A stretch of 64,000 nt of DNA from a virus (IMGVR_UViG_3300009285_002354:1-64000), one strand, 5' to 3'. Positions 43,581-61,054 are shown, counted from the stretch's first letter. Translations and numbers: made by a program. Notes: generated by a model from the letters alone, not told the origin.

Positions 43581-44150
43581 TTAACTGGTCTGTTCGTAGA
43601 TGATGCCGATGCGGTCGCCTTCGGCGCGAGTGGTGTCGAGCAGGGCTTGGAATTCCAGCGTCTGCAACGAGACGTCTTCCTCTTTGAAGGCGTAGTCGAT
43701 ATTGGTGACGCACTGCGCCTTGTAGAGGATGATGACCACCTTGTTCCCGTTGGGCCGAGTGTGCTCCAGCTTCAACGTGAAATCGTTGATCGTCTTGGTA
43801 TCGCCGAGCTTGAGGGAGTCCCACTTATCTGCGGCGTCCACGGTGAACGACAGACTCGACCCCAGGCCCGTAGGCACAAAGCTGGCGGTGATGCTGGTCG
43901 TGACGCCCATCGCGAGCTTGAGATTTGACAATCGCAGTTCCGCCGCTGTGCAGGTGATCTTGAAGGCTTCCGAGATGCGGAAGTACTTCACCGGCGACAA
44001 CTCATCCGCCGGCTTGAACGGAACATACCCTCGCTCACATGTGAAGCTGACGTCCCCCTTGACGTGTCCGACATCGATCCCGTCGATCCAGATTTTGGCC
44101 GAACCGAGTGTTACCAGATCGGTTCGCTTATCCTGAGCTGGCACTCCCAT
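43581..44150 (-). CDS. major tail protein
   Basis: 189 aa, immediately upstream of the G/GT chaperones. Beta-rich composition. Confidence 0.6.
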   Translation of the reverse strand: MGVPAQDKRTDLVTLGSAKIWIDGIDVGHVKGDVSFTCERGYVPFKPADELSPVKYFRISEAFKITCTAAELRLSNLKLAMGVTTSITASFVPTGLGSSLSFTVDAADKWDSLKLGDTKTINDFTLKLEHTRPNGNKVVIILYKAQCVTNIDYAFKEEDVSLQTLEFQALLDTTRAEGDRIGIIYEQTS

Positions 44151-45135
44151 AATCTGCCGTCCTTTCCGCGCGTGCCAGGACTCCCCGGATCACCGCGTCG
44201 TACTGCGCCGCGATCTTTTTGATGTCGTGATGCTCGACGGCGAAGTCGCGGCCGTTCTGCGATAACTGCCTATACAGGTCGGGTTCTCGCATCAAACGTC
44301 GGACGGCGTTGCAGATCTGTTCTGTGGTTTCAGGTGATGCTGTTTCAGGGTCGCGCGTAATATACACTACGTTCTCGTAGTCTGTCAACAATTCTCCGTG
44401 AAATCCGACTTTTGTAATAATTACCGGTACACCACAAGCCAGGGCCTCCGTGACCACGTTGGAGCACCCTTCCCCCTGGGAAGGCAAAATCAGGGCGTCG
44501 ATCTCGTGGTAGAACTTCTCCGGCATCTCCTCGTGGGGGATTTGGCTATGCCGATAGAGGACGCTTTTGTGCTGGACGCCGTCCACCATGAGATCAATCC
44601 CGGCCTGGACGAAGAACTTCCAGCCTTTGTATGCCCCCCCCATACCATCGATATTGCCTGCAAAACCGATGGTAAAGGGCCTGTCCGGGCGGTCCGGGAA
44701 GCAGGGGCGCGGCTTGAAATGATCCAAATCCACCCCGTTCGGGATGACCGTCGTGTTCGGGTTCACGGGCCGGGCGAAGCTCGCCAGTTGCTCGTTCGTG
44801 GCGATGATGGCGCCGACGTTCCTGAAATCTTCTGCGTAACGGTTTGGATCGAGATTCGGTTGCATCTGCAAACCTCCTATGCGTAAGACAGTCTTTTCCC
44901 GGTGCTCGATGTAGCGGATTCCATCGTGGTTCTGGGGCATGAGGATGTCGAAATGCTCCTCCAGCCCTTTACCCACAGGGAATATCAACGTGGCGCCACA
45001 GCCCGGATTTTCACAGAAAAACAGCCCTCTACGACAGCGTACGAATTCGTAGTGCGGCAGACAGTCAATAAGCTGCCCGATGGCGTTGCCCCAGGACCAG
45101 GACAGTTCGTTCTCGATGGATAAAATGGTCGGCAC
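44128..45135 (-). CDS. GT-B glycosyltransferase (family 1/GT4-like)
   Basis: C-terminal EGCSNVVTEALACGVPVI (E-x7-E class). N-terminal Rossmann segment shared with the three mini-proteins. Confidence 0.8.
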   Translation of the reverse strand: MPTILSIENELSWSWGNAIGQLIDCLPHYEFVRCRRGLFFCENPGCGATLIFPVGKGLEEHFDILMPQNHDGIRYIEHREKTVLRIGGLQMQPNLDPNRYAEDFRNVGAIIATNEQLASFARPVNPNTTVIPNGVDLDHFKPRPCFPDRPDRPFTIGFAGNIDGMGGAYKGWKFFVQAGIDLMVDGVQHKSVLYRHSQIPHEEMPEKFYHEIDALILPSQGEGCSNVVTEALACGVPVIITKVGFHGELLTDYENVVYITRDPETASPETTEQICNAVRRLMREPDLYRQLSQNGRDFAVEHHDIKKIAAQYDAVIRGVLARAERTADYGSASSG

Positions 45136-45270
45136 GGTACGTCTCCTTGAACCAAAGGGGTTCCCGGAGGCGTTTCAGGTCGGGAATCAGTGTAGCCGGT
45201 TCCAATCGCACATCAAGAGCATTGATCTATCATAGGTACATTTTGTACCCCCAAACAAGGATAGTTGACG

Positions 45271-45513
45271 TCAATGGCCAGCAAACAATTTGATAGCGTT
45301 CAGGTTCAAAATGACCTTCTTCGACCGTCTGAAGAACTGGAACAGTCTCGGGTCCGGGCAGACGATCACATCGGCCCCCAGAAGCGGCAGGAAGCCCTCC
45401 CGCGAGTAGCAGACAAATCGATGCTCGTATTGAGGCAGGCGACCTGCAATGGCAACGGCCCTATTCTCATATGCCCATCCGGGTTGATCCGTGATCCACG
45501 CTATGATCGGCAT
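45271..45513 (-). CDS. GT4 N-terminal-domain-like mini-protein, paralog 1
   Basis: MPIIAWITDQPGWAYENRAVAIAGRLPQYEHRF, compared with 48046..48324 and 49916..50236. Confidence 0.4.
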   Translation of the reverse strand: MPIIAWITDQPGWAYENRAVAIAGRLPQYEHRFVCYSREGFLPLLGADVIVCPDPRLFQFFRRSKKVILNLNAIKLFAGH

Positions 45514-46364
45514 ATATGCTCCACGGCCCATTCCGAGCACTTGTGATCCTTGTGGGTCTCGTCGATCAAGACTTCAAATTCCCCGCCCAGGCCGATTTCC
45601 TTGAGGCGGTCCTGAATCAGGGGTACATATTGCAGAGCAGCGTCCCCTGCGAAGCAAGCGGGATCGAAACGGTTGAACACCTGCACCTGCTTGCGCCCTA
45701 CGGACGCTAGAACGAAGCGGTCCATGTAGCTCGCAATCTGGTAGAGGGGATCGTACTGCTGCTCGAAATCCCCGATCTCTGCCGCCCCTCTGAGAATGCG
45801 CGGCCAGACCCCGGCTACCGGAATAGAGAGCTTGACCCGCTCATCGATGGCGGCATAGAGGGAAGCCGACCAACCGCCCCCGGAGACGCCCGCGATGGCG
45901 GTTTGCTCGTATGCCCCAGTGGCATAATCGCAGAGAACCATCCACGGGAACACGAAGGGTTCTATCGGGGTGGGCAGTTGCGCGAAGTCCTCATGGGACG
46001 TCAATGAGCGCCCCTCCCATGATCCGGCCGAATTCGGCTCGTACAAAGGCATGGCCATTGCGATGACGTCCCACCCGTGATTCAGAAAGGCACCGATCGC
46101 TTCACTGCTGTGTCGATAATGCCCCGCGTGGCCCTCGCAGTAGATCAAGGCCCGCTTTCCCTTACTGCGATAGTAGCCGGCCACATATCGCATCCCATAG
46201 GGCCCATCAAATGCTATCTGCCCCGCAGTCACTTCTTCTATGGCCATATCTCTCGGTCGATCGCCAGCAAAGACGAGTTTCGCAAGCTGCGCCCGAACCC
46301 GCCGGACATCCTCCGCTGTATGGATATGCAGAGTTGACTCTAGTTGGGCCGTCAAATCATCCAC
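45501..46364 (-). CDS. alpha/beta hydrolase-fold protein
   Basis: GVSGGGW nucleophile elbow (GxSxG). 287 aa. Confidence 0.6.
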   Translation of the reverse strand: MDDLTAQLESTLHIHTAEDVRRVRAQLAKLVFAGDRPRDMAIEEVTAGQIAFDGPYGMRYVAGYYRSKGKRALIYCEGHAGHYRHSSEAIGAFLNHGWDVIAMAMPLYEPNSAGSWEGRSLTSHEDFAQLPTPIEPFVFPWMVLCDYATGAYEQTAIAGVSGGGWSASLYAAIDERVKLSIPVAGVWPRILRGAAEIGDFEQQYDPLYQIASYMDRFVLASVGRKQVQVFNRFDPACFAGDAALQYVPLIQDRLKEIGLGGEFEVLIDETHKDHKCSEWAVEHICRS

Positions 46365-46692
46365 GGTGAGTCTCCATGAGCTTTACCAGCTGCGCCCGTT
46401 GCGCCCGCAGGGCCTCGATCTGGGTTTTCACTTCATCGGGCATGGTCCCGTACTCGAACGGGAATTCCAAGTCGTCGATCTTGAGCTCTACCAGCCTCTT
46501 GACCAGCTTGATCCCCATGCCATAGGCTTCTTCGATCAAGGGGACCATCCGGGCCAGCAATTCATCATCCTTGCCTGCGAGGCCCACTACGGCTTCATCG
46601 AAAAGCGTTCTCAGGACTTCGCAGAGAGTTCTGCGGTCGTAGTTCACACTGTTGCCCTTGACGTCGTCCATGATGCCCGCATACTCACTCAT
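46357..46692 (-). CDS. hypothetical protein (111 aa)
   Basis: ORF. Confidence 0.45.
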   Translation of the reverse strand: MSEYAGIMDDVKGNSVNYDRRTLCEVLRTLFDEAVVGLAGKDDELLARMVPLIEEAYGMGIKLVKRLVELKIDDLEFPFEYGTMPDEVKTQIEALRAQRAQLVKLMETHRG

Positions 46693-47069
46693 CGTTCACC
46701 ATACCTGCTTCTGCGATCCCAATGACGCCCACGCGTCCAATCTCTCATCCCAGACAGCCGAACGATCATCCGTCGATCTATTTGCCCGCCAGCGAGTCCC
46801 ACAGGCCCCAGGACAGGCCAATAGCGAACGCGGAGGCCGTCCATGTGGGCTCCAAGGAATTCGAGCATTTCGGCCTTGCGCTCGGTGGTGATCTTGGCCC
46901 GTTCGCCATCCCTGATCAAATCCGCGGCTTCGAATTCCCCCAGTCGGGCAGTTGCGGCACGCATACCATCCTCAAACACGGCCGTGTCGTAGATCATGCC
47001 GACACCTCGAGCCGCAATTTGCCTTGCATCGGGTGCTTGTCCACGCGCGGACGGGATGGGCAGGACCAC
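46689..47069 (-). CDS. hypothetical protein (126 aa)
   Basis: ORF. Confidence 0.4.
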   Translation of the reverse strand: MVLPIPSARGQAPDARQIAARGVGMIYDTAVFEDGMRAATARLGEFEAADLIRDGERAKITTERKAEMLEFLGAHMDGLRVRYWPVLGPVGLAGGQIDRRMIVRLSGMRDWTRGRHWDRRSRYGER

Positions 47070-47554
47070 GATCTACCTTCCACTTTGCCGACGCACTTCC
47101 ATCCTGCGGCCGTCAGACTCGTACCCGGCTCGGTATCCAAGATGTACGTGATGAGCTTCCGATACCCAAGATTCCGTGCCGCCCGCCAGCAAGCCGCATA
47201 GAGCATGGAGCAGGCATTTTTCGTGCCATCCGTGCATAGCCGCGTCACTTCAACCGTCCAGCCATCATCCAGCATCCGCGCAACCGGCCGGCCAACAATG
47301 GCCACACCCACGATCCTCTCGCCTTCGGCGCAGGCGATTTGAAAGATAGACCCGAGCGGGGCCTCGTGGTGCCGGTGATTCTGCGTGACGAATGCCTTCG
47401 CCTCGCCTTGCGTGCATGGCACGATAATCAAACTCACACGGTCACCTCTGGGCCCTTCAGAGTACTCTCGTATGCTGCCAGTTTCATCGTGCGGCACGGC
47501 GTGCAAGTCCCACATGCAATGATCTTCCCCTGTCGCTTTACGGGCTTTTCGCAA
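46994..47554 (-). CDS. conserved hypothetical protein (possible GNAT-like fold; start uncertain)
   Basis: IVGVAIVGRPVARMLDDGWTVEVTRLCTDG...LITYILDTEPGTSLTAAGW. Its 5' end overlaps the QueC-like gene by ~120 nt, so the true start is probably downstream of 47554. Confidence 0.3.
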   Translation of the reverse strand: MRKARKATGEDHCMWDLHAVPHDETGSIREYSEGPRGDRVSLIIVPCTQGEAKAFVTQNHRHHEAPLGSIFQIACAEGERIVGVAIVGRPVARMLDDGWTVEVTRLCTDGTKNACSMLYAACWRAARNLGYRKLITYILDTEPGTSLTAAGWKCVGKVEGRSWSCPSRPRVDKHPMQGKLRLEVSA

Positions 47555-48045
47555 GACCAGACGCAGCGAGAGGAAATCCCCCTTTTCTTGACCTCCTCAA
47601 CAACCTCGCATTTACGCATCCACATGAGGGGATATTGAAGCGTCACTTTCCTATTTCGCAGGGCCGTACCGCTCTCCATGAGGTTTTCCGCGAAATGCCG
47701 GTACATCCAGAAGTCATCCCCCCGGTGATACCCGAAGTAGAGTTCCGATTCTTCCGGCAGGTATGGGGTGATGAAGTTGAACCACGCCAATACCTGAGGG
47801 AGTCCACCCTCAGTTGCCGACATCGTGGCCGTCACAGTCACGGTTTCATAGGAGAAGACGTAGCCTTTCTTCTTGGCATACTCACGATAGTTGTCTCTCG
47901 CGGCCTTCTCTTTTTGCCGCTTCAGCTCATCTACCATGTGCCAGTCCAGGGCGAATGCCCAGATGTCAATCTTCCCCCAAGAGCACAGGCGATCCAAAAC
48001 GAGGGTACTGTCGTATCCACCAGACCATGCTACTATGTGAACCAT
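47434..48045 (-). CDS. QueC-like PP-loop ATPase (7-cyano-7-deazaguanine synthase family)
   Basis: SGGYDS PP-loop, YPLMWMRK (compare QueC TPLMWIDK), C-terminal zinc cluster CVWSCEKPVKRQGKIIACGTCTPC. Confidence 0.7.
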   Translation of the reverse strand: MVHIVAWSGGYDSTLVLDRLCSWGKIDIWAFALDWHMVDELKRQKEKAARDNYREYAKKKGYVFSYETVTVTATMSATEGGLPQVLAWFNFITPYLPEESELYFGYHRGDDFWMYRHFAENLMESGTALRNRKVTLQYPLMWMRKCEVVEEVKKRGISSRCVWSCEKPVKRQGKIIACGTCTPCRTMKLAAYESTLKGPEVTV

Positions 48046-48324
48046 CTATACCTCTCTCTCGAAGGGCCGGAACCCCGTGAGCATGGTCACGACCCTCTTC
48101 CGAAACTCCGGCTGGAGCCACTCCTGGTATCTCAGGTACATCGATATGACCACATCTGCTGATCTTGCGATCAGATTCAGCGTCTGGTGCTCCGGGTCCA
48201 TGGTCATGCAGCAATAGAACGCCACATGCTCATATTGAGTGAGCCGGCTGGAGACATTCTGCACGATGGAATCAAAGGCCCATCCTGGAGTATCGGTCAG
48301 CCAGAGAATCACGGGTTTGCTCAT
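48046..48324 (-). CDS. GT4 N-terminal-domain-like mini-protein, paralog 2
   Basis: MSKPVILWLTDTPGWAFDSIVQNVSSRLTQYEHV. Confidence 0.4.
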   Translation of the reverse strand: MSKPVILWLTDTPGWAFDSIVQNVSSRLTQYEHVAFYCCMTMDPEHQTLNLIARSADVVISMYLRYQEWLQPEFRKRVVTMLTGFRPFEREV

Positions 48325-48484: not shown

Positions 48485-49090
48485 TCATGGCTTCTCCACG
48501 ACAATGTGAAGCTCTTCTTGAATCTCCCCTTCTGCCCGTCCGGTCGGAACGCGCTTCAGGTCATACTTGACTCCCAGCCCCGAAAGCAGAGCTTGGAGCC
48601 GGAAGTTGCTCAGATCGGTGTACCAGTACCCATCCACTTCGCTGTGCTCTTGCCGGTGCGCCGGAAGTGCCGGGAAGTATCCCCGATAGGTCATAATGTA
48701 GGCGTACTTTCGGGCCTGCTCGACCGCCTTGCGAAGAAAGCCGTCCGGGTCCGCAACGTGATCGATCGTGGCGCGCGAGAAGATCAGATCAGCCCGCTCC
48801 GTGAACTCCGCATGCTGGAAATCGGTGCAGAACCAGCCATGATGCGGTCGGCCGCGATGAAGACAATGCTGAATGACCTTCGGGTCGTGGTCCACACCGA
48901 AGTAGATTTTGTCCCCGAAGAAGTCGTCATAGAACCAGTGCTTGCCGCAGCCGATCTCCATGACACTGTGAATGTCCGCCATGCGGGGTCTGAGCCAGTC
49001 TATGAAGACCTGGTGCGGGACCTCCGCTTCATTGTGGATCCACTCGTACCATTCGGGTGATTTGAAGGCATGGGGATTTACGTTTGGCAT
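48485..49090 (-). CDS. class I SAM-dependent methyltransferase
   Basis: Motif I VMEIGCGKH. 201 aa. Confidence 0.7.
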   Translation of the reverse strand: MPNVNPHAFKSPEWYEWIHNEAEVPHQVFIDWLRPRMADIHSVMEIGCGKHWFYDDFFGDKIYFGVDHDPKVIQHCLHRGRPHHGWFCTDFQHAEFTERADLIFSRATIDHVADPDGFLRKAVEQARKYAYIMTYRGYFPALPAHRQEHSEVDGYWYTDLSNFRLQALLSGLGVKYDLKRVPTGRAEGEIQEELHIVVEKP

Positions 49091-49203
49091 GAGGTCTCCT
49101 TACTTGCAAACAAGGCTATCTGGCCAGTCCTGCTCTCTCTTATGGGCACGCCTGTGTCTATCGAAGTCAAACGCTCGCAGTCGATGGCAACGAGTGCAAG
49201 CAG

Positions 49204-49827
49204 TCATGCTTTGTCCTCGCCGATTTCGGATTCGTTCTCGGCGTTGCCCGGCTTTCGCGGATCGTGGAATTCGCAGCATGACGTGGCGGGGACCGTCTTA
49301 TCTCGCCATGTGCTTTTCCGCGACCGGCAGAATCCGTGAGTCAGTTGACCCTGGATCGCGCGCCAGTCCGTGCAGCCGAGACATCTTCGCTTGGGCGTGT
49401 AATGCCTCTGGTCTGGCTTACCCTCCTTCGTCACTCTCATCAGCTTGGCGGGAGGGGCAGGCTCCTCCACCAAATGCCTGCACGACATATCGACGTGGAG
49501 CACGCCTTGTATCCACTTCGCGGGGTAGCTCGTCTTCTCCTTCACCTCGATGCCGTAGTATTGCAGGAACCCCTTCGCGGCGAACCGGCCCTCCGTACAG
49601 GTGAGGGATGGCTTGAGCCAAGTGCGTGAGCCGGAGGACTTTTCCGCCGTGAACGTCATCGTCGCCAGCTTGGCGTTCCTGTCATAGCGAAGCTCGACGT
49701 AGGGCATCTTCCGGTCCAAGTTCACCCCGAGCGCGGCCGTGATGTAGATCGTGCCTTTGGGCGTGATCGTGACGAGCGAGGCCCCTTTCGTCGTGAGCTT
49801 CTGGCCAGTATAGAGTTCCAAGACCAT
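49204..49827 (-). CDS. hypothetical protein with a Cys-rich C-terminus (207 aa)
   Basis: ORF; C-terminal CLGCTDW...CCEFH. Confidence 0.45.
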   Translation of the reverse strand: MVLELYTGQKLTTKGASLVTITPKGTIYITAALGVNLDRKMPYVELRYDRNAKLATMTFTAEKSSGSRTWLKPSLTCTEGRFAAKGFLQYYGIEVKEKTSYPAKWIQGVLHVDMSCRHLVEEPAPPAKLMRVTKEGKPDQRHYTPKRRCLGCTDWRAIQGQLTHGFCRSRKSTWRDKTVPATSCCEFHDPRKPGNAENESEIGEDKA

Positions 49828-49915: not shown

Positions 49916-50236
49916 TCACTCAACGATCACGTTCTCCTTCAGCTTGACGAAGATATCCACGTATTCTCCCGCATGATCTATCCGAACCGAGTCTATCCTG
50001 CACACGATCTTCTTCGGGTCCGCACCGCCCCGGATCGTCCTCTCTACAACTTTCACTCCTTGACACACGATGACGTCCGCCTTGTCCATCATGTCCTTCA
50101 AGATAGATGGTGGGACGTTCGAGGAGAACCAGACTCGATGGTCATAGCCGGGCAGGGCCTTGCGCATGGTGTCCACCCTTCCCCAATACGCCCACCCACG
50201 AACATCGCAGGTCCACAAGACAATGGGCTTACGCAT
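49916..50236 (-). CDS. GT4 N-terminal-domain-like mini-protein, paralog 3
   Basis: MRKPIVLWTCDVRGWAYWGRVDTMRKALPGYDHRV. Confidence 0.4.
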   Translation of the reverse strand: MRKPIVLWTCDVRGWAYWGRVDTMRKALPGYDHRVWFSSNVPPSILKDMMDKADVIVCQGVKVVERTIRGGADPKKIVCRIDSVRIDHAGEYVDIFVKLKENVIVE

Positions 50237-50495
50237 GGTGCCTTGTTGCCTCCGCAGAATCGATCTGGCCACAGACTATTTGTGGCCCACCGAATTCACG
50301 TATCGCCTCTCGGGAGTTCAAGAGGACAACTCTCGTTCGCGTGAGTCCGTGAGCGACAATCTTGCCGCATCGCAGACACTGCAGAAAAACCACTTTTCCA
50401 CGGTCCTGCAATCCGGTTACGGAGTCCGTCACTTTGACATCGTAGCTACCAACTGCTTCCCAATAGTGCTTCCCAAACAGGCATCTCCAATTCAT
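50229..50495 (-). CDS. zinc-ribbon protein (DUF1660-like C..GKH.W...CLRCG)
   Basis: CLFGKHYWEAVGS...CLRCGKIV. Confidence 0.4.
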   Translation of the reverse strand: MNWRCLFGKHYWEAVGSYDVKVTDSVTGLQDRGKVVFLQCLRCGKIVAHGLTRTRVVLLNSREAIREFGGPQIVCGQIDSAEATRHHA

Positions 50496-51109
50496 CTTCG
50501 CATCCCCTCATAGGCCTCGACGGCTTCATGTGCTTGTGGTAGTGTGTCCGTACCGAATGGCCTCAAGGTCGCTACCAGAATATCCGCCGGTGTCACACCC
50601 TCTTCAAACCGGATCCAGTAGTCGGGATTGATCTGCGTTACGATCATCTGGACAATCTGGGTAACTGTGACCTTCTGCCACTGGGGAATCCCCAGCCAGA
50701 AGTAGCGGATGTCATCGATGAGGATCACATGATCTTTCACTGGATGATCCGCAATGGCGCGTAACTCATTCAGCAGAGGACATGGACTGACGCCTTGTTC
50801 CAGTGGGGCCTCGCCGGTTGACCAGTGAGAATCCAGCCAGAAGACCGCTGGTTCCTCGACGTAGCGAAGAAGTCCCTTGAGCACCTGGCCCCCATCCCCC
50901 AATAGAATTTCGACGCTGGAGTTCCCTGCGAATCGCTCAAATGCTCTTTGATAGACGTCGGGATTCGCCTCGATGGAGTAGAGTTTCTCAAAGCCATGCT
51001 CGATGGCGTTCTGCAGACCTTCCCCTTTGGCGGTCCCTGTCTCAATGAAAATCCGGCGATTGCCGGCGTATCGCTTCAGAAGCTCTGGTTTCAGTGTACT
51101 GTTGTTCAC
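50492..51109 (-). CDS. SAM-dependent methyltransferase (FkbM-like)
   Basis: IETGTAKGEG motif I. GTG start with a CCGGAGAA SD; the longer track ORF is an N-terminal extension. Confidence 0.6.
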   Translation of the reverse strand: MNNSTLKPELLKRYAGNRRIFIETGTAKGEGLQNAIEHGFEKLYSIEANPDVYQRAFERFAGNSSVEILLGDGGQVLKGLLRYVEEPAVFWLDSHWSTGEAPLEQGVSPCPLLNELRAIADHPVKDHVILIDDIRYFWLGIPQWQKVTVTQIVQMIVTQINPDYWIRFEEGVTPADILVATLRPFGTDTLPQAHEAVEAYEGMRR

Positions 51110-52972: not shown

Positions 52973-53194
52973 TCACTCGACTTGCTTTGCCTTGATCCAC
53001 TTGGCGATTCGCCTGCCAATTCTGGATTTGATTTCGTCAGCCTCCATCTGATTCCACTCCGGCACCAAGTCACAGAGGGCTTCAACATCTCTAGCCAGCC
53101 TCTTGACGCTCTTGGCATCGGCATTCATGATGATTCTCAGTTGTAGGGTGACTGGGCCAATAGGCATGGTCATGCTCCTGTCATCTCCCGACAT
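52973..53194 (-). CDS. hypothetical small protein (73 aa)
   Basis: ORF. Confidence 0.4.
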   Translation of the reverse strand: MSGDDRSMTMPIGPVTLQLRIIMNADAKSVKRLARDVEALCDLVPEWNQMEADEIKSRIGRRIAKWIKAKQVE

Positions 53195-53198
53195 ACCT

Positions 53199-54206
53199 TC
53201 ACGGATCGTAATAACGTCCCCAGCCGGTCATTTCGCGGTAAACATCCACGATGTCCCTGGCTCGCTGCTCCAGCGAATGCTTTTCGTGGACCATCTTCTG
53301 TGCGGCCGGCGCGATAGTTTTCCATGCGTCCGATTCCAAGACCATCGGAATCTGGTTCACGCTCTCGATCTCGACATAGGTTTCACCCGGAATGAATCCG
53401 CTGGCCACCATCAGGGGCATGTGATGACTGACGAGACAGGCGCCGTGGTTGCAGACCTCGTAGAACTTGGGGGGAATCTGAAGGTCATAGATGCCGCCGC
53501 TGAAGTAGTAGCGAGTGCGCGCCAGCGCGTGACGATACTCTTCATCGGACAGTGTGAACGTACTGCCTGTTGGGTTGCCGGAGAGAACAATGTCCGGCCG
53601 ATTCATCTTCCGGAGGTACTTCCACACGGCATCCCTGAATGGATACGTCCCCGACATCTTGCCGGTGCACATCCCGGCAATGGTCTTGTTCGGGTTGTAC
53701 TCGGTGATGTTCTTGACGTTGAACCAGGGCAGGTAGACCACTCGGCAGTTATGTGCTGCACATTGCACCACAAGATTCGGCAGGACTCCGAGCTGGGGCA
53801 CGGTTGCGATTCTCTCTGGCGGATCGAGAGGATACTGAAGGCTCAGAACCAGATTCGGCTTGACCTTTTCAAGGAAGACCTCGAACGGCTGCCGATAGAC
53901 GCCAATGTAGTCCGAAATCGCGGTCCACACGAAATCGGCCGGGCGCCGCTTCGGGCACTCGAAAAGCTGCACGTAGGCAATGTCCGCCGTTCCTTCCGGG
54001 GGATCGTAGTCCCCACCGTCAAAGCTGTTGGCGCCGTGGGGTCTCGGCGAGAGAACGATCTCTGCGCCAAGCTCCTTCGCGATCTGCTGCTGAAGGGCGA
54101 TACCATAGGCGTCGGTCCAGTAGTTGCCCCCACCCTGGCCGACTCCGCCGTTGGTCTGATCGTTGGCGGCGAGCACCTTGTAGCAAGAGACGAGTCTCAT
54201 GGTCAC
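53199..54206 (-). CDS. CgeB-like glycosyltransferase (Glyco_trans_1_2 C-terminal domain)
   Basis: C-terminal PKFYEVCNHGACLVSHHMP...FIPGETYVEIES...EQRARDI resembles the CgeB-family C-terminal domain. Confidence 0.55.
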   Translation of the reverse strand: MTMRLVSCYKVLAANDQTNGGVGQGGGNYWTDAYGIALQQQIAKELGAEIVLSPRPHGANSFDGGDYDPPEGTADIAYVQLFECPKRRPADFVWTAISDYIGVYRQPFEVFLEKVKPNLVLSLQYPLDPPERIATVPQLGVLPNLVVQCAAHNCRVVYLPWFNVKNITEYNPNKTIAGMCTGKMSGTYPFRDAVWKYLRKMNRPDIVLSGNPTGSTFTLSDEEYRHALARTRYYFSGGIYDLQIPPKFYEVCNHGACLVSHHMPLMVASGFIPGETYVEIESVNQIPMVLESDAWKTIAPAAQKMVHEKHSLEQRARDIVDVYREMTGWGRYYDP

Positions 54207-54583
54207 TCCTTGTATGGATCGTAGTCAACCTCGCCACTCTCAAATCCAGGGTGACGTTTGCTGCGATCGATCGTCACCGGGGTCACGCAAAGTTCCCGTG
54301 GAATGGACACGGGCTTACCTTGTTCGGGTTCAACAACGGGAAACCTCGCGCCCTCTGCCGTTGGCGCAAAACTCGGGTGATAGATGCGAATATAGAAGCA
54401 ATCGTCGAAAGGCACATACTTTACCGACGTCGCCACAGCATCTGGCGGAATCTCTTTCCATCGAGGAAGCTGGATGGTCTCATGCCCGCAGGCGTTTTGT
54501 AAAACGGCCAGAATCGCCTGTGTATCGACATGCAGAAGAACGCATCGTCTTTCCTTCAGGACATCTACTTGCGGTGTTTTCAT
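54203..54583 (-). CDS. hypothetical protein (126 aa)
   Basis: ORF. Confidence 0.45.
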   Translation of the reverse strand: MKTPQVDVLKERRCVLLHVDTQAILAVLQNACGHETIQLPRWKEIPPDAVATSVKYVPFDDCFYIRIYHPSFAPTAEGARFPVVEPEQGKPVSIPRELCVTPVTIDRSKRHPGFESGEVDYDPYKE

Positions 54584-54598
54584 AGGTCATACTCCTAG

Positions 54599-55075
54599 TT
54601 AGTCTTTGGGGCTAGTGGATTCCACGAGGGGGACAACGTCTGATACTTTGATAGGGTGTCGGTCCACATAACAGGGGCAGGCGCTCGTAGAAGGTGAATT
54701 GCTCCGGCCACAGAGAGGACATACCCAGCCGACAGGGCTGTTGGGAATCCATTTGATCTGCGGATTACTCAGCGGGTGATTCGGGCACTTCGTCTCGTGC
54801 TCGCCCGCGGTATTCAGTTGGCAGAATGGGCATTGGTACGCTGGATGATGTGGTGAGGACTTCGATGCGTTGGTCATGGACTTGTCCTCGAAACTTTCTT
54901 CCATCCACTGTTTGATAAGGGCCCGATCTGCGGGATTGAGGCGCACACTCATGCCAACCCCTTGATGGTCGATGCAGGCGAACATACAGTCGTCCACATC
55001 TGGACTCAATTCAAAGCGATGCCCATCCCGATGGATTTGCAGGATTCTACCGGCACGAATCGCTTGGTCTTGCAT
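54599..55075 (-). CDS. hypothetical zinc-ribbon protein (158 aa)
   Basis: CPFCQ...CPNH...CPLCGRSNSPSTSACPC. Confidence 0.45.
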   Translation of the reverse strand: MQDQAIRAGRILQIHRDGHRFELSPDVDDCMFACIDHQGVGMSVRLNPADRALIKQWMEESFEDKSMTNASKSSPHHPAYQCPFCQLNTAGEHETKCPNHPLSNPQIKWIPNSPVGWVCPLCGRSNSPSTSACPCYVDRHPIKVSDVVPLVESTSPKD

Positions 55076-55150
55076 GGTAAGGTCTCCTTGTCAGTAACTA
55101 TTGTAGAACCGGACATGGGTGATATTGGCCGGGAGCTTGGCAATCTCGAT

Positions 55151-55372
55151 CTAAAAACCCTCGCGACCATCATCCCTCCACTTCTTGGCCACATCGGATT
55201 CTTCTAAATCAACTTCAACGCCGCGAGCATCCGGTTCTTCGCCATCGAAGAAGTCGCTCACTTCGTCCGGTATCTTCGCTCCTGCCGCTTCGCAGGCATC
55301 CCAGACGGCCTTCATCTTCTTCCACTTCTCGTCGGGCGGTCGAAACCCGACAACATGCGTACTCATTGACAT
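55151..55372 (-). CDS. hypothetical acidic small protein (73 aa)
   Basis: ORF. Confidence 0.4.
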   Translation of the reverse strand: MSMSTHVVGFRPPDEKWKKMKAVWDACEAAGAKIPDEVSDFFDGEEPDARGVEVDLEESDVAKKWRDDGREGF

Positions 55373-55648
55373 TTCAGGTCCCCTTCACAGAATCAAACGC
55401 ATAACGCCATAGATGGCAAGTGCGAGACTCCCAAGCATAAGGATCCATCCAACGCAGCATAGCCACAACCAGCAGAATATCTCGGTAAGATCAAGGAACT
55501 TCTCGAAAGCTTCATTGAGATTGAAACGCATAAACACACCCTCACCCCAGGTCTCCTTATCTGGACTTTTCCACTATCAAGATGAAATTCAGAACAACGA
55601 TGACGAGGGTTGCGATCTGCACATACAGCAAGGACATAGATTGACTCC

Positions 55649-57418
55649 TCAACCAAAATTCCTCTGCATCCAAAGGTGCAACATCAGGATCAGCCATATC
55701 GGATGGCCCATGTTCGTCTGGCCCTTGAGATGCGCATCGAGCACAGAGGCGACCTTGGGGCCGTCCAGGATTGCCCAGGGCCAGTTCAAGTCCGTCGTCA
55801 TGTCCACGAGCATCTGGCGCCCGATCTCGCTGCGGAACCATTCCCCGACCGGCACACTGAATCCTCGCTTGGGCCTCAGAAGGACGGAGAGAGGGACCAT
55901 GTCCCGGAAAGCGTCTTTCAGAATGAGCTTGCCGGTGTTGCCTGCGATCTTGAGGGAACTAGGAATCGCCAGCGCCAGCTCAATGACCCGATGATCCAGG
56001 AACGGACAACGCGCCTCCACGCTCGCGGCCATGCTTGCGCGTTCCATCTTGACGATGATGTCATTGGGCAGATAGGTCCTCGTATCTAGCCACATCATTT
56101 GATTCAGCAAGTCATTGCCAGGGAACATGGCGGCCTGCTGAAACATCCAGCCCAACGTATGCGGGCCGATGATGGACTTTGCGAACTCCGGATCGAGTAT
56201 ATGGTTGACGACGCGGAACGGCATGACAGAGAGCCAGGGAATGTATCCCACGATCCCTGCCTTGCCGTCATAGACCCAGTATCTCTCATACCCGCCGAAC
56301 GCCTCATCCCCACCATCCCCCGTCAAGGCGACCGTGATGTACTTCTTTGATTCCTCTGCCAGAAGCATTGTGGGAATCGCAGAGCAGTCCCCAAACGGCT
56401 GGTCGTACTGATCTACGATCCTCTGCGCCATCTCGGGCAGTTGCGGAAGCTGCACGATCGCCTCGTGGTGGATCGTACCCAGATACTCCGCAGTCTGCTT
56501 TGCTAGGGGCAACTCGTTGTAGGAGCTTTCCGCGAACCCCATGGAGAAGGTATGAAGCTCTTTCAGGTGCTGCTTGGCGACGGCGGCGATGATGGCGGAA
56601 TCCACTCCACCCGAGAGATAGACGCCCAAGGGGACATCGGACTCAAGGCGGCAGGCGATGGCCTCGCTCACGACTTGCCGGACTTTCACGGTGAATCTGT
56701 CGCCTATGTCCGTGTCCCCATCATTCGGGCGCGGCCCCCACCACTTCACGACATCGAGCTTGCCCTCCGCCGGCCGATAGGCAACGTAGTGACCCGCCGG
56801 CACACACACGATGCCCTTGAATGCGGTTTGAGGCTCAGGAACGTACTGGAGAGAGAGATAGTGGTACAGCCCTTCGGGATTGATCTCCTTGTGGTATCGC
56901 GGGTGCGCCAGGATTGCCTTAATCTCCGAACCCACCACGAAGATGTTGCGCGATTCATCAAACCAATAGTAGGCGGGTTTTTTGCCGAGGCGGTCCCGAG
57001 CAAGATAAAGAGTCTGTGTCGCCCTATCCCAGATACCTATGGCGAACATCCCATCAAGTTGGTCGAGGCAGGATACCCCTTCCCTGTCCCATAAGCGACC
57101 GATCACTTCTGTGTCCGAGTGAGTCTTGAATGGCACGCCGACAACACTCAGATTGTGCTGGAGCCTGCGATGCCCATAAATCTCACCATTGAACACCAGA
57201 TCGACCTTGCCGGTATGCATGGGTTGCCGGCCGCCCTCCCGGTCGATGATTGCAAGCCTTCGCATGGCCATGTTGACGGCCCAGTCTTTGCCCACTATCG
57301 AGAAGTCGCCGTAGTCATCGGGACCTCGATGGATGATCGTGTCGGCCATCTGTTTGACCACAGTGGTATCAGGCTCAACGAACCGACGACTGCCAGCCTC
57401 AAGCACTATGCCACACAC
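55649..57418 (-). CDS. asnB: asparagine synthetase-family glutamine amidotransferase (AsnB/WbpS-like)
   Basis: N-terminal MCGI (Ntn Cys), PP-loop YLSGGVDSAIIAAVA. 589 aa. Confidence 0.9.
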   Translation of the reverse strand: MCGIVLEAGSRRFVEPDTTVVKQMADTIIHRGPDDYGDFSIVGKDWAVNMAMRRLAIIDREGGRQPMHTGKVDLVFNGEIYGHRRLQHNLSVVGVPFKTHSDTEVIGRLWDREGVSCLDQLDGMFAIGIWDRATQTLYLARDRLGKKPAYYWFDESRNIFVVGSEIKAILAHPRYHKEINPEGLYHYLSLQYVPEPQTAFKGIVCVPAGHYVAYRPAEGKLDVVKWWGPRPNDGDTDIGDRFTVKVRQVVSEAIACRLESDVPLGVYLSGGVDSAIIAAVAKQHLKELHTFSMGFAESSYNELPLAKQTAEYLGTIHHEAIVQLPQLPEMAQRIVDQYDQPFGDCSAIPTMLLAEESKKYITVALTGDGGDEAFGGYERYWVYDGKAGIVGYIPWLSVMPFRVVNHILDPEFAKSIIGPHTLGWMFQQAAMFPGNDLLNQMMWLDTRTYLPNDIIVKMERASMAASVEARCPFLDHRVIELALAIPSSLKIAGNTGKLILKDAFRDMVPLSVLLRPKRGFSVPVGEWFRSEIGRQMLVDMTTDLNWPWAILDGPKVASVLDAHLKGQTNMGHPIWLILMLHLWMQRNFG

Positions 57419-57864
57419 GAAACACCCCCGATCTTGTGGAGTTCAGCTTTGGCGGCAAGATAGGCAGCACGTGCGTTGTTCCTATCATCGAAATACCCCA
57501 GAAAATGCTGACGACCGTTCAGTACGATTTGAGCCGCGAACTTGCCGATATGACGATTCCAGCAGTAGCCTCTTGGGTTACTATTGAAAGTGTTCTCTTG
57601 GTGGCTTACATCTCTGATATTATCCCTGCGGTTGTCAAGGCCATTATGATTGATGTGGTCAACGTCCCTCCTGTCTCCAGGTTTCAACCCGAGAATCTGG
57701 CGATGCATGAAAATGAACGTAGGCTTCCCACTGATTCGTTGCTGACGCATAGCGTAGCAGGTGTGTTTGGATTTCAATACACACCACTTCCACTGCATGA
57801 GCCACTCGTAATCCTCATCGTCCACAAGGGCGAACTGTCCCCGCGTGAGGGGAATCTTCTTCAT
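57406..57864 (-). CDS. HNH homing endonuclease (HNH_3/AP2-like), paralog of 1337..1798
   Basis: MKKIPLTRGQFALVDDEDYEWLMQWKW...DHINHNGLDNRRDN. Confidence 0.8.
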   Translation of the reverse strand: MKKIPLTRGQFALVDDEDYEWLMQWKWCVLKSKHTCYAMRQQRISGKPTFIFMHRQILGLKPGDRRDVDHINHNGLDNRRDNIRDVSHQENTFNSNPRGYCWNRHIGKFAAQIVLNGRQHFLGYFDDRNNARAAYLAAKAELHKIGGVSCVA

Positions 57865-58058: not shown

Positions 58059-58757
58059 TCAGGCTCGGATCGTCACAATTCTGTACCTCGCCCGCTGGAA
58101 GTAGCACTTCAGATTCTCATCCCACAACTCCGGCCCCGAGGATTCATAGAGAATCCCCTTTACCAGCCAGTCGGTAGTGGCGACCTGTAGCCGCTCATTG
58201 AGCAGGGCATAGACACGATCTTGAATGGCCCGCCAGTCTCCGCCCCAGACCGTCACATCCAGAAAGATGCTCCTGGGGAACCAGCCCGTTTCCCCATTGA
58301 TCCGATACGTGATCACGGGGGTATTCACTTGCACTGGTGGATAGGCGTAGAAGACGCAGCGCGGTTTGGTCACCGCATCGTATCCGAGCAGATCGCCGAG
58401 TTTGCCCGCCGATGCATCCTCAGCGTCCCCCACGAGAATCTGATAGACGGCCTGCATGAGGGTCGCCCCGCCCGGAACACGCGCAGCCGGCGAGTAGTAG
58501 ACGACCTCATTGTAGTTCGTCTCGCCGTTGTAGGTCCATTTGACCCAATAGGTGTATTCAATGCCGTCACTCGGTTCCGTGAAGTCGTACTCATATGTAC
58601 CAAGGGCCGTCCGAGTCATGGGCGTATTGGCCGCCACAACAATTGCCCCGGTGTCATCCCGCTTCAGGCCAAAGGTGCTCGTGGGGTCACAAAGGACAAC
58701 ACTGTCCACATCGTGCGCCGCGTCATTGACTTGGGTTGTGAATCTCAGTGTCGCCAT
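58059..58757 (-). CDS. hypothetical protein (232 aa), possibly structural
   Basis: ORF. Confidence 0.45.
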   Translation of the reverse strand: MATLRFTTQVNDAAHDVDSVVLCDPTSTFGLKRDDTGAIVVAANTPMTRTALGTYEYDFTEPSDGIEYTYWVKWTYNGETNYNEVVYYSPAARVPGGATLMQAVYQILVGDAEDASAGKLGDLLGYDAVTKPRCVFYAYPPVQVNTPVITYRINGETGWFPRSIFLDVTVWGGDWRAIQDRVYALLNERLQVATTDWLVKGILYESSGPELWDENLKCYFQRARYRIVTIRA

Positions 58758-58758
58758 A

Positions 58759-59133
58759 CTAGTCCTGAATCACCGTGCTCTCGGTGCGGATGCTCGTTGC
58801 GGCCAGAGACGGTTCCGAGACCTCTTCGGAACATGCGATGTGCAGGTTGCCTGACTCTTTCGCGTAGAGATTGTACCTGACTCCCGTAACCCATGCCCCC
58901 GCGGGAATACTGGCTGTCCAGTGTCCGTCCGCTTGATGAGTTCCCGTTCCCGCGATCGCCTCAGTCGCGGACCATGTGCCTCCTGATGCATTGTACCACT
59001 TGCCGACATTGGCACCCGTGAGCGCCATGAGATAGAAATTCACGGTTCCCGATGTAATGGGGTCGCCGTTCGCCTTGGCTACCATGTCGGCATACATCGT
59101 ATTCGATTGTGCGGCCGTGAAGGATTGCATCAT
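58759..59133 (-). CDS. hypothetical protein (124 aa)
   Basis: ORF. Confidence 0.45.
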   Translation of the reverse strand: MMQSFTAAQSNTMYADMVAKANGDPITSGTVNFYLMALTGANVGKWYNASGGTWSATEAIAGTGTHQADGHWTASIPAGAWVTGVRYNLYAKESGNLHIACSEEVSEPSLAATSIRTESTVIQD

Positions 59134-60008
59134 CGACTCCTTCGTCGCTTCGTTCGCTCTGCGGGGGACAAACGGTAGAAGCTCAGGACATCCTCAGTTG
59201 GGAACTGCGCGCCGGTGTTCAGATCGATGTGGCGGCAGAGCAGGTTCGAGTCCACCAGGAAGGGATACTGTTTCTTGGCGATTTCCGGCCAACCGGCGCG
59301 CTTCAAGACGTTCTCTTTGATGACGCGCCGGCAGAACTCCAGGTCGGAAGTGCCCGTTCGCCGGTTCCATTGACCCGTCATGGGGTCCGTTACCATCGTG
59401 GATGGGGTTTCAAACACTTTGCGAGTGACTCTTTCCCCGATGGTTTTGTACGGCTTGGAGTCATTCCATAGGGTCTCCAGGATCGAGCGGTGAATCAGCA
59501 GCATCCCCGTAGTGACTCCATCCACCCAGAACCGCTCGCCGATTGTGAAATCCCGGAAGTAGCGGTTGCCTGTGCCCCGATAGACAAGCGGCTCAGACCG
59601 CGGGGCCTTGAGGAAGTACAGTCCGCTCACTATGGGAATGTCCTCCTCCATGATATATTCATCCATCCGCGTGAACAGATCCGCCGGCGCAACGACGTCG
59701 TCTTCCCAAAGCAGGAGCCATTGGAAGTTCTTTTGGAGCATATCCTCCGTCGCGAGATTCTGCGCGTCCGCAACGAGATAGTGCATCGGGACCGTGAAGC
59801 CAGCCCCGATACTGACGTCGGCGGACGACCAATTGCACGGAATAACCTGCCCATAGCGCATGATGGCCCACTCGATTCGGATATTTCCAAGAGTGGGGGT
59901 CGCGATCATGAGGCGCTTTCGGGGGTTCCCGCCGACGCCGCTTTTGATGATCGTGGTGTTGGGAGCGGGGTGCTCCTCGATTGACTTAGGTTTCTTCTGC
60001 GCCGTCAT
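59130..60008 (-). CDS. putative GT-A fold glycosyltransferase (GT2-like)
   Basis: IATPTLG N-terminal beta strand and an LLWEDDVV acidic (DxD-like) motif. Weak. Confidence 0.45.
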   Translation of the reverse strand: MTAQKKPKSIEEHPAPNTTIIKSGVGGNPRKRLMIATPTLGNIRIEWAIMRYGQVIPCNWSSADVSIGAGFTVPMHYLVADAQNLATEDMLQKNFQWLLLWEDDVVAPADLFTRMDEYIMEEDIPIVSGLYFLKAPRSEPLVYRGTGNRYFRDFTIGERFWVDGVTTGMLLIHRSILETLWNDSKPYKTIGERVTRKVFETPSTMVTDPMTGQWNRRTGTSDLEFCRRVIKENVLKRAGWPEIAKKQYPFLVDSNLLCRHIDLNTGAQFPTEDVLSFYRLSPAERTKRRRSR

Positions 60009-60290
60009 TTACATCATCTCCAATTCCCAAAGCGGTGCATTGGGCATATTCCTGCGTTGACGCAGACCGTCGCGCCATTCCTGAAGGTCTTTGATAGATA
60101 CATCTCTCGCCTTGAAACCAGCGACTATTGTATTCTCGCGAATCTTGTCAGCCATTTCGCATTTACCTTCCAGGCGCAACTCAGAGCGAACAGAGTCAAG
60201 AAACAGCATCAGCCAAGCCATCGGCGGTAGTGCCTGATCCTCTGTGGATTTGGGTTTCTTAGTCACTGGAAAGTTCCTCGCGCAAGTCAA
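60009..60290 (-). CDS. hypothetical small protein (93 aa)
   Basis: ORF. Confidence 0.35.
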   Translation of the reverse strand: MTCARNFPVTKKPKSTEDQALPPMAWLMLFLDSVRSELRLEGKCEMADKIRENTIVAGFKARDVSIKDLQEWRDGLRQRRNMPNAPLWELEMM

Positions 60291-60510
60291 TCAGCATGGA
60301 GAGGGTCTGGTCAAATCCGCACTGCTCTGCCATCTTGGCCATTGAATCGGGGCTCATGGGCAGTACATAGCGTTTATTTCGCTCCGCCCTCTTGGCCTCA
60401 ATGCGCAGAATCGCCTCATCTATGGCGGCAAGCGCGGTCGGTGGAGATTTCTTCTTGTCGGTGATTCCCACGATCGCCTCGTCTCTCAGTAGTGATCGTT
60501 CCGAAGACAT
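60259..60510 (-). CDS. hypothetical small protein (83 aa)
   Basis: ORF. Confidence 0.35.
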   Translation of the reverse strand: MSSERSLLRDEAIVGITDKKKSPPTALAAIDEAILRIEAKRAERNKRYVLPMSPDSMAKMAEQCGFDQTLSMLIDLREELSSD

Positions 60511-60526
60511 GCGGTTCCTTTCGGGT

Positions 60527-61054
60527 CTATTGCGGTTTCTTCCAAGTTGGCTTGCCGCTCTTGTCTTTGCGGGGTTCCAAAATCACTTCGATGCAGCCGG
60601 TGAAATTCGCGTCGTTACGGATGATCTTCCAAGGCTTCACCATGCCATAGGCCCCGTTGATATAAAGTGTATAATCGGGATCGAAAAATTGGAATGTGGC
60701 TTCGTTCGGGCACAGATAATGCTCCGGGTGCGCGTTGGCCAGGAATGAGTTGGCATACGGCGCCGAGAGAAATAGTTGTCCATCCCAGCGCGATATCCGC
60801 CAGAGCTCGTCCATCAGCTTGAACCGATACTTGGGCTCGATGTGCTCCCAGATATGGCACATGACAATCATGGTGCAGGCGTCGCTCGGGACCGGCCAGG
60901 GAAACTTCTGAATGTCGTGAACGATGTCCACGCCGGGAAGCTTCAGTCGGTCGATCCCGATGCACCCCTTCTGCTTGTTCGGGCCGCAGCCGACGTCGAG
61001 CTTTACGCCGGACATCTTCCCGAACAAGGCGCGGTTGTACCCGTGCGGTGTCAT
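60527..61054 (-). CDS. class I SAM-dependent methyltransferase
   Basis: Motif I LDVGCGPN. 175 aa. Confidence 0.65.
   Translation of the reverse strand: MTPHGYNRALFGKMSGVKLDVGCGPNKQKGCIGIDRLKLPGVDIVHDIQKFPWPVPSDACTMIVMCHIWEHIEPKYRFKLMDELWRISRWDGQLFLSAPYANSFLANAHPEHYLCPNEATFQFFDPDYTLYINGAYGMVKPWKIIRNDANFTGCIEVILEPRKDKSGKPTWKKPQ

Follow-up and report, generated by a model that had tools for sequence, protein, structure and literature searches.

The 64,000-nucleotide viral stretch IMGVR_UViG_3300009285_002354:1–64000 (the window hereafter) holds, at positions 44128–61054, a sugar-modification island, which forms part of the late structural operon in an uncultured temperate siphophage. The island ends in a gene for a GT4-family glycosyltransferase, which is translationally coupled to the gene for a putative major tail (tube) protein. 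Its core, a GT4 enzyme of predicted retaining type with one or more proteins of ∼90 amino acids (aa) corresponding to the N-terminal (acceptor-side) subdomain of GT4, is ancient and invariant. Glycosylation of virion proteins, with the tail tube as the foremost acceptor candidate, is the best explanation of this arrangement, and we hold it with modest confidence.

All genes between 43.5 and 64 kb are on the minus strand, with transcription running from position 64000 towards 1, and every feature described below lies on that strand unless stated otherwise. The GT4 gene (44128–45135, 335 aa) is the last of the island, and its end overlaps the start of the tail-tube gene by 23 nucleotides. The protein is predicted to be a GT-B, retaining-type enzyme by its matches to Pfam Glycos_transf_1 (9.5e-14; 51.7 bits against a cut-off of 26.4) and to the glycosyltransferase family phrog_2170 (5e-17). 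A first-pass annotation, made by a model from the sequence, had called it GT4-like from an E-x7-E motif; this motif (E222-GCSNVVT-E230) is invariant in six homologs down to 40 per cent identity. Weak NCBIfam matches include the GlcNAc transferases BshA and MshA, and relatives of the phage pair GT4 with the GlcNAc deacetylase PIG-L.

The tail-tube gene (43581–44150, 189 aa) matches phrog_2175 at 8e-10 and precedes two chaperone-like genes and the tape measure gene. Synteny and the PHROGs match make it a putative major tail protein. The same label in the first-pass annotation is thus consistent with position, and no named major tail protein family stands behind it. A profile of the family found no match among PDB sequences, and its alignment was too divergent for a pattern scan. 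The protein has a variable Ser/Thr-rich segment at about residues 83–105.

Three small paralogs lie within the island: A (45271–45540, about 80–89 aa), which is the N-terminal subdomain of GT4 as a protein of its own, B (48046–48324, 92 aa), and C (49916–50236, 106 aa). They are related to one another (BLASTP 1e-8 to 1e-10) and align to residues 1–91 of GT4 (hhalign E 5e-5). Orthologs of B are 60–69 per cent identical in relatives, and those of C ∼70 per cent identical in four of them (L008, L014, L015, L016; L numbers designate the loci compared). The family to which they belong has at least 125 members, all of 67–167 aa and nearly all of 80–125 aa, and has neither a Pfam domain nor a name. 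An AlphaFold2 (AF2) model of paralog B has a mean predicted local distance difference test (pLDDT) score of 92.3 and a four-strand Rossmann-like alpha/beta fold, for which Foldseek returned only generic Rossmann-like or flavodoxin-like matches in the PDB (E ≥ 0.01). The small domain also occurs in fusions: four loci have it C-terminal to PIG-L, L037 has it as the N-terminal part of a 311-aa protein, L049 joins it ahead of a complete GT4, and in L045 it is the N-terminal subdomain of GT4 itself. The fusions to PIG-L and GT4 therefore tie the small domain to sugar machinery.

Searches with GT4 returned one contig from a GTDB metagenome-assembled genome (MAG), twenty metagenome loci, and nineteen viral contigs. 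In every locus of the lineage with readable downstream sequence, one or more small proteins are followed by GT4 and then by the tail-tube gene; this order is present in L007, L008/L034, L013–L016, L018, L019, L023–L026, and L035–L042. Along the lineage, identity falls to ∼42 per cent for GT4 and to ∼40 per cent for the tail tube. The tail-tube family has ninety-one members, four divergent ones of which (33–42 per cent identity) were read in context. Sampled from this side, all four have a Glycos_transf_1 gene immediately upstream of the tail tube; one of these loci has an 87-aa gene before GT4, and another has PIG-L together with a Glyco_trans_1_2 gene. The minimal form of the arrangement is terminator, small protein, GT4, and tail tube (L025, L028, L060). 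In more distant phages (L043, L044, L049), whose GT4 is 33–37 per cent identical, the pair comes directly after the major head protein and before the head–tail adaptor Ad1.

Larger islands add variable sugar enzymes upstream of the core. These include AsnB followed by a CgeB-like gene (L035, L041), up to three CgeB-like genes, the PIG-L GlcNAc deacetylase, FkbM, and other methyltransferases, and island size among relatives ranges from two to ∼25 genes. The conserved set consists of GT4, the small proteins, the CgeB-like gene, and an O-methyltransferase of the type found at 50492–51109. The epimerase, GT-A, PP-loop, and small Cys-rich genes of the window were not seen in the relatives compared.

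Several of these loci have features of their own. Two tandem, diverged tail-tube copies (∼30 per cent identical) follow GT4 in L024/L040 (8400–9522), L036, L038, L039, L041, and L042; the window has one. In L041 (1000–12900), the adaptor and head-closure genes flank most of the sugar island, namely AsnB, methyltransferases, three CgeB-like genes, small proteins, and a GT4 that is truncated. A further GT4, this one complete, stands between the terminator gene and that of the tail tube. The GT4 homolog of L025 (994–2013), a short metagenome contig, has two in-frame stops and may be a pseudogene, a sequencing error, or a case of recoding.

Public gene calls for the same contig place thirty-one genes in 44128–61054, with 94.9 per cent of the sequence coding. 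The first-pass annotation had described a co-directional, tightly packed cluster, which is correct, and had counted some twenty-eight genes in it. Fourteen pairs of neighbouring genes overlap, and no more than four intergenic gaps are longer than 100 bp. The guanine plus cytosine (GC) fraction of the island is 0.560, and its tetranucleotide usage correlates with that of the early region (r = 0.94) and of the tail module (r = 0.905); in composition the island is indistinguishable from the rest of the phage. Promoter-like and terminator-like sites within it are not more frequent than in shuffled sequence. There are no multi-span membrane proteins in the island, where the only hydrophobic products are one exported protein and a 48-aa peptide, and it therefore encodes no Wzx, Wzy, initiating transferase, or Gtr-type protein. 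Its enzymes would all be soluble proteins of the cytoplasm.

A PAP2-superfamily membrane protein and the tyrosine integrase adjoin each other elsewhere in the window (30840–32318 and 28052–29161), both on the plus strand, opposite to nearly all other genes. The PAP2 gene occupies the classical lysogenic-conversion position beside the integrase, which is more than 15 kb from the island. An autonomous O-antigen or exopolysaccharide (EPS) locus, a Gtr-type conversion system, and a recent host insertion are excluded because the island has no multi-span protein, does not lie beside the integrase, and is not foreign in composition. The earlier view that this is not classical lysogenic conversion therefore holds, there being no membrane transferases and the integrase slot being filled by PAP2. 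The chimeric host insertion that had been named as one possible refutation is ruled out by the phage-like composition, the circular contig, and conservation in relatives.

Among the sugar-type enzymes, the one called an NAD-dependent epimerase in the first-pass annotation is more precisely a homolog of GDP-mannose 3,5-epimerase (51638–52648, 336 aa). It matches PDB 2c59 at 6.6e-81 over residues 2–326, with GDP-fucose synthase as the next family at 6e-25, and Pfam Epimerase at 1.4e-38. The SSAC (Cys), YxxxK, and GREKAPAA motifs, which we take to be catalytic, are aligned and conserved.

The AsnB-family glutamine-dependent amidotransferase (55649–57418, 589 aa) was also correctly recognised. It matches Asn_synthase (1.9e-89), GATase_7 (2.2e-38), and TIGR01536 (413.7 bits against a cut-off of 267), and carries both MCGIV and SGGVDS. 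The public gene call starts at 57406, four codons late, and drops the catalytic Cys; a GTG start at 57418 restores MCGIV, as in the L041 ortholog. The best NCBIfam match is the XrtA/PEP-CTERM amidotransferase TIGR03108, at 474 bits and below its cut-off of 816.9, which gives no subfamily-level assignment to the sugar- or EPS-specific classes (WbpS or XrtA/PEP-CTERM); no WbpS model was among the results. Orthologs occur at the same position in L035 (41 per cent identity) and L041 (58 per cent), and the conserved position beside the CgeB-like transferase is only suggestive of sugar specificity.

That CgeB-like (Glyco_trans_1_2) glycosyltransferase (53199–54200, 333 aa) scored 24.5 bits against the PF13524 cut-off of 25. 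Its L040 ortholog passes at 33.3 bits and its L062 ortholog is listed without a mark of weakness, so that the name proposed earlier, borderline for the window protein, has some backing from the orthologs. The gene is present in nine of thirteen loci and adjoins AsnB in L035 and L041.

A third transferase (59130–60008, 292 aa), previously described as GT-A-like, has no sequence-family match in Pfam, NCBIfam, or other profile scans, and its GT-A fold is read from an AF2 model (pLDDT 86.8). The best PDB match by Foldseek is the GT-A enzyme A197 of Sulfolobus turreted icosahedral virus (STIV) (E 3.8e-9), with collagen-glycosylating and Mimivirus R699 GT-A enzymes ranking after it. Sixty-two PDB matches have E ≤ 0.001, and most of those listed are GT-A-fold glycosyltransferases; in BFVD, phage GT-A proteins match at 2e-13. 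The motif E102-D103-D104 is invariant across forty-nine homologs. The family runs to at least 698 homologs, all of which lack a Pfam domain, and is also found within the head/tail modules of three unrelated phage contigs (L053, L054, L056), beside proteins of 893–1666 aa. It is strongly conserved, at 50–76 per cent identity.

Three class I S-adenosylmethionine (SAM) methyltransferases had been proposed, one of which is clear (48485–49090, 201 aa; Methyltransf_11, 33 bits against a cut-off of 21.2; orthologs in L016, L021, and L035). The other two are borderline. The putative O-methyltransferase at 50492–51109 (205 aa) has no Pfam match as a single sequence, its family profile matches PDB 5zw3 (YrrM) at 7.8e-5, and it occurs in nine of thirteen loci. 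A probable class I SAM methyltransferase at 60527–61054 (175 aa) matches Methyltransf_23 (5.1e-4, below cut-off) and the methyltransferase family phrog_6636 (0.0019), and its ortholog in L037 (43 per cent identity) lies directly upstream of GT4. The exported protein (51160–51645, 161 aa) reported earlier has an N-terminal, signal-like hydrophobic window at residues 3–32 and no family match.

If these enzymes act together, a pathway can be proposed. Late in infection, GT4 would attach the initial sugar to a virion protein, either ahead of assembly or in its course, with the tail-tube subunit as the most likely acceptor. The small proteins may help in acceptor choice or docking, as their homology to the acceptor-side subdomain and their fusions suggest. 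The CgeB-like and GT-A transferases would lengthen the chain, and the epimerase, to judge by its homology, would turn host GDP-mannose into GDP-L-galactose or GDP-L-gulose. Two or three methyltransferases and AsnB would tailor the product, and the outcome would be a methylated, possibly amidated oligosaccharide on the particle. What the acceptor and the glycan are, and what the small proteins do, we infer from the genes and their arrangement.

Virion glycosylation is favoured because there are no membrane or export genes in the island. It is the best-supported reading because the core is locked to the genes of the two most abundant virion proteins, and because there is a precedent in mycobacteriophages. 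The particle-associated role that had been proposed at the outset is thus favoured by the phage-like composition, the lack of membrane transferases, the PAP2 gene beside the integrase, and the fixed place of the core beside the tail-tube gene across the lineage.

The mycobacteriophage glycan shields the virion from antibodies, and to our knowledge a few mycobacteriophages are the only phages for which particle glycosylation has been demonstrated. There, according to four papers, phage glycosyltransferases and an O-methyltransferase glycosylate the capsid and tail tube (PMC11600133, PMC12619734, PMC10877033, PMC11256854, citing Freeman et al. 2023). The phages concerned include Che8 and further members of F1, Corndog and further members of cluster O, and Myrna (PMC11600133, PMC11256854, PMC12619734). 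The concept of virion glycosylation therefore has a precedent. The systems are alike in having their own transferases and a methyltransferase, predicted for the island to be soluble, with no export machinery. The GT-A model also has a weak fold match to the F1 phage protein Ardmore gp87 (E 1e-4). They differ in that the mycobacteriophage systems have two to four transferases and in F1 phages lie near the right genome end, outside the structural operon (PMC11256854). The island, in contrast, has a GT4 coupled to the tail-tube gene, free-standing GT4 N-subdomain proteins, an epimerase, an amidotransferase, and ∼25 further genes.

Several points weigh against virion glycosylation. Phage gene order also reflects expression timing and preferred insertion sites. 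Late expression would fit DNA modification equally well, and two island genes are of that type. Neither the tail-tube nor the capsid protein carries the kind of Ser/Thr-rich C-terminal extension seen at the mycobacteriophage sites; there is just the internal variable segment of the tail tube. The small-domain model is Rossmann-like in a general way and has no particular structural neighbour, so that the fold does not name a function. AsnB could be plain metabolic support because it scores above the cut-off for ordinary asparagine synthase. Finally, the genome searches covered ∼78 kb of ∼106 kb, and the host assignment given below depends on the binning of phage-only contigs into one MAG.

The first rival explanation is that the soluble enzymes divert nucleotide sugars and alter the lipid-linked or surface glycans of the host late in infection. 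Such remodelling of the envelope might block superinfection, keep progeny off lysed cells, or aid release, and is the usual proposal for cyanophage sugar genes. Homologs of the epimerase (∼40 per cent identity) are common in cyanomyoviruses beside glycosyltransferase and FkbM genes, apart from any proven virion role, and the best NCBIfam match of AsnB is exopolysaccharide-associated. GT4 likewise matches EPS-type transferases, and the island encodes one exported protein. The cyanomyovirus sets share the epimerase family and similar neighbours with the island, but they are auxiliary genes dispersed through the large genomes of lytic myoviruses and have no fixed link to structural genes. A flippase, polymerase, initiating transferase, or other membrane enzyme is missing from the island, and the lysogenic-conversion slot by the integrase is filled by PAP2. 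Moreover, the GT4 pair is fixed beside a tail-tube or head gene across deep divergence and differing GC content, which would be unexpected for a host-specific surface function. We regard this explanation as unlikely. The Gtr/Oac systems of lysogenic conversion resemble the island in placing sugar-modifying enzymes in a temperate phage; they differ in being membrane proteins encoded beside int/att and expressed in the lysogen, whereas the island belongs to the late operon and has no membrane enzymes.

A second possibility is that the junction between neck and tail-tube genes is a permissive insertion site at which genes accrete, so that only some cooperate and the island has no single function. 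The wide differences in content, from two to ∼25 genes, agree with this, as do the homing endonuclease found at varying positions and the mixing of DNA-modification-type genes with sugar genes. In L041 most of the island lies between another pair of structural genes. Against it, sugar-related functions predominate overwhelmingly among the variable genes of every relative (PIG-L, FkbM, CgeB-like, AsnB, methyltransferases), the core pair is invariant, and fusions join the small domain to two different sugar enzymes. As an account of the whole island it seems to us quite unlikely; it fits the extra cargo and is compatible with virion glycosylation for the rest.

The island does hold genes of other kinds. 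Besides the three GT4-N-subdomain paralogs, the first-pass annotation had overlooked a tail-terminator-like gene, an HNH endonuclease, and a Mom-like GNAT. A homing endonuclease and two structural genes occur in the region in addition to the Mom-like gene, so that it does not form one homogeneous glycan pathway.

The Mom-like GNAT, of the XF1762 family (46994–47437, 147 aa), matches NF045478 (3e-63; 211.9 bits against a cut-off of 50) and phrog_1384, 'Mom-like DNA modification protein' (1.2e-38), and scores 25.5 bits against Pfam Mom, under the cut-off of 27.1. Its homologs in other phages adjoin DNA methyltransferase, RecT, SSB, and terminase genes, and among the relatives it occurs in one only (the L008/L034 contig). 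Beside it is the QueC-like PP-loop ATPase (47434–48045, 203 aa), with SGGYDS and a C-terminal Cys cluster. Its matches to Pfam QueC (3.7e-9, C-terminal part only) and to phrog_1550 (1.5e-20) uphold the earlier QueC-like name. It scores 20.9 bits against the QueC equivalog TIGR00364, far under the cut-off of 150.3, and an NCBIfam scan gave only weak TilS N-domain and QueC matches; the PseA-type sugar amidotransferase role proposed for it is unmatched, no PseA/WbuX-type model being hit in that scan. Among the relatives compared, the PP-loop gene is in this phage only. By their family matches the two are probably DNA-modification cargo.

The Mom-like gene is thus a clear member of the family of Mu Mom and XF1762, and the PP-loop gene matches a phage QueC-like family. 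Unlike the Gat-QueC 7-deazaguanine systems, the parts of this genome inspected hold no DpdA or other preQ0 gene, and both genes are absent from most relatives. Mu mom is a late gene too. A 7-deazaguanine or hydroxymethylcytosine-glycosylation pathway was considered and rejected, as DpdA/TGT, TET/JBP, and QueD/E were all missing from the ∼78 kb inspected (Pfam, PHROGs, and precomputed domain lists). For this pair DNA modification is the likeliest role, at about an even chance in our view; it is not a plausible account of the island as a whole.

The weakest alternative, that the transferases, methyltransferases, amidotransferases, and Mom-like GNAT together decorate DNA bases before packaging as a defence against restriction, is improbable: it draws on the strong Mom-like match adjoining a QueC-like ATPase, on Mom-like homologs among DNA-metabolism genes, on a C5 DNA methylase elsewhere in the window, and on virus glycosyltransferases reported to hypermodify DNA (PMC12619734, citing Pyle et al. 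2024), but there is no DpdA/TGT, TET/JBP, or hydroxymethylase in the inspected ∼78 kb, the Mom-like gene is in one relative and the PP-loop gene in none, the conserved set is made up of other genes, and the conserved pairing is with structural and not with replication or packaging genes.

The homing-endonuclease-like gene of HNH-AP2 type (57406–57864, 152 aa; HNH_3 1.7e-5) is selfish cargo. Its mobility is suggested because relatives carry the island copy at different positions (L013 and L014). A paralog lies in the early region (1337–2035, minus strand), and a third HNH gene is at 18223–18918 (plus strand).

One of the two structural genes encodes a tail-terminator- or neck-like protein of 232 aa with an extra N-terminal domain (58059–58757), so named by synteny. 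Homology over its last 138 aa links it to the gene located after those for the adaptor and head closure in L024, L025, L028, and L035–L042. No family matched it, and a terminator pattern search of viral contigs gave nothing. Its neighbour, a 123-aa protein (58759–59130) with no significant family match, is possibly structural.

A conserved 287-aa protein (45501–46364) has orthologs of ∼51 per cent identity at the same position in L013–L016 and L022. It had been called an alpha/beta hydrolase, and this name is unconfirmed, with no significant match in Pfam, NCBIfam, PHROGs, or the PDB; the only hits, PhoPQ_related (E 0.09) and CDC14 (E 0.03), are at chance level. Next to it are two small conserved genes (46357–46692, 111 aa; 46689–46997, 102 aa), with orthologs in L013–L016, L022, and L037 and no family match. 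The remaining genes are small. A 207-aa protein with a Cys-rich C-terminus (49204–49827) has no family match and occurs in this phage only, and an 88-aa protein with CxxC pairs (50229–50495) has no Pfam match. Two genes of 104 and 64 aa (52645–52959 and 52973–53167), one with a Cys-rich motif, and two of 85 and 83 aa (60009–60266 and 60259–60510) have no Pfam match either. Four genes of 126, 158, 73, and 48 aa fill 54203–55531; one has zinc-ribbon-like Cys pairs (weak zf-Sec23_Sec24), and the 48-aa product is hydrophobic.

Upstream of the island, a 160-aa protein (61091–61573) and a 962-aa repeat protein (61586 to ∼64474, past the window end; L003 7100–9988) have no family match, and both are candidate fibre or decoration proteins and possible acceptors. 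The larger had been described as a giant Ser/Thr/Asp-rich protein; it is rich in Ala, Val, and Leu instead. It is acidic (A 17 per cent, V 13 per cent, L 13 per cent, S 10 per cent, D 8 per cent, T 7 per cent) and has ∼46 degenerate repeats of 21 aa (autocorrelation peaks at 21, 41, and 62), with no tandem repeat at the DNA level in its gene. A role in fibres or decoration is probable. Two genes upstream of the window separate the connector genes from that of the repeat protein. The first (L003 4270–5424) encodes a 384-aa protein that has a signal peptide and is Cys-rich towards its C-terminus; a secreted protein is unusual in a structural operon. The 549-aa product of the second (L003 5451–7100) looks, judged by eye, like a right-handed beta-helix.

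The window is identical or nearly so to the groundwater-metagenome contig k127_130366 (ENA ERZ909573; 106,846 bp). The ends of this contig share ∼503 bp, and positions 40513–41015 of the window, inside the tape-measure gene (39950–42844), cross the junction uninterrupted. Because the contig ends overlap and the window spans the junction, the phage genome is circular or terminally redundant, at ∼106.3 kb. Its tail module is of the RcGTA/phiJL001 type, with DUF2460, a BR0599 hub, NlpC/P60, and Phage-tail_3 with Rcc01698_C, as well as the tape measure. Upstream of the window the contig has a Mu gpT-like major capsid gene followed by small connector genes. Other genes include DnaB, the C5 DNA methylase, RusA, and a Cas4-like nuclease. 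In the early region, a Cas4-domain exonuclease (25459–26475, minus strand) matches phrog_1990 at 9e-16, and a transposase-like protein (9229–10230, minus strand) matches phrog_4285 at 1.5e-35. The early region also encodes two radical-SAM-type proteins, one with CPNRCGFC (3704–4576 and 16261–16965), a DUF1643 protein (4573–5103), and an Rrf2-type regulator (3310–3672), all on the minus strand; a link of these genes to nucleic-acid modification is conceivable.

The GTDB MAG that carries GT4 is a Sedimentisphaerales bacterium (Planctomycetota), and its contig holds phage genes only. The host may lie in Planctomycetota, of which this is a weak hint. Several module-carrying, phage-only contigs (L013; proteins P0005, P0013, P0029, P0036, P0041) were binned into one Sedimentisphaerales MAG.

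Megablast of the whole cluster against GenBank phages gave no match. In tblastn searches of 50,697 GenBank phage records, GT4 had one weak partial match only and the GT-A protein none. There is therefore no cultured model phage. The lack of relatives of the GT4 subfamily (that one match apart) and of the GT-A family among these records is a new finding. The conserved coupling of GT4 to a tail-tube or head gene, the free-standing half-domain partner, and the size and chemistry of the island are new as well. No description of such an arrangement was found in the literature, for which our coverage was incomplete. The earlier statement that no equivalent cluster was known thus stands for position and gene content, but not for virion glycosylation as such, which is known in mycobacteriophages.

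Giant viruses also carry nucleotide-sugar pathway genes. STIV, with A197, the chloroviruses, and Mimivirus are like the phage described here in that they carry their own cytoplasmic glycosylation enzymes, which in those viruses serve virion proteins. They differ in being archaeal or eukaryotic viruses, and sequence identity is only 8–17 per cent.

A broader proposal, which we put forward tentatively and consider doubtful, is that many uncultured tailed phages beyond the actinobacteriophages glycosylate their own tail tubes or capsids by means of GT4 and interchangeable, acceptor-targeting adaptors of ∼90 aa. The island described here would then be the most elaborate version known, making a methylated, amidated L-galactose or L-gulose glycan. 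Each paralog would steer GT4 or a tailoring enzyme (compare the PIG-L fusions) to a different virion protein or stage of the glycan.

A broad group of environmental phages may thus share self-glycosylation as a trait that is both conserved and structurally integrated. The analysis defines two protein families outside Pfam, the small half-domain (at least 125 members) and the GT-A family (at least 698), names GT4 and its small partner as the key gene pair, and points to an unusual sugar supply via GDP-mannose 3,5-epimerase. If the virion-glycosylation reading is true, the enzymes would be new tools for protein glycoengineering, and virion glycans would have to be weighed in phage–host recognition, particle stability, and adsorption in the environment.

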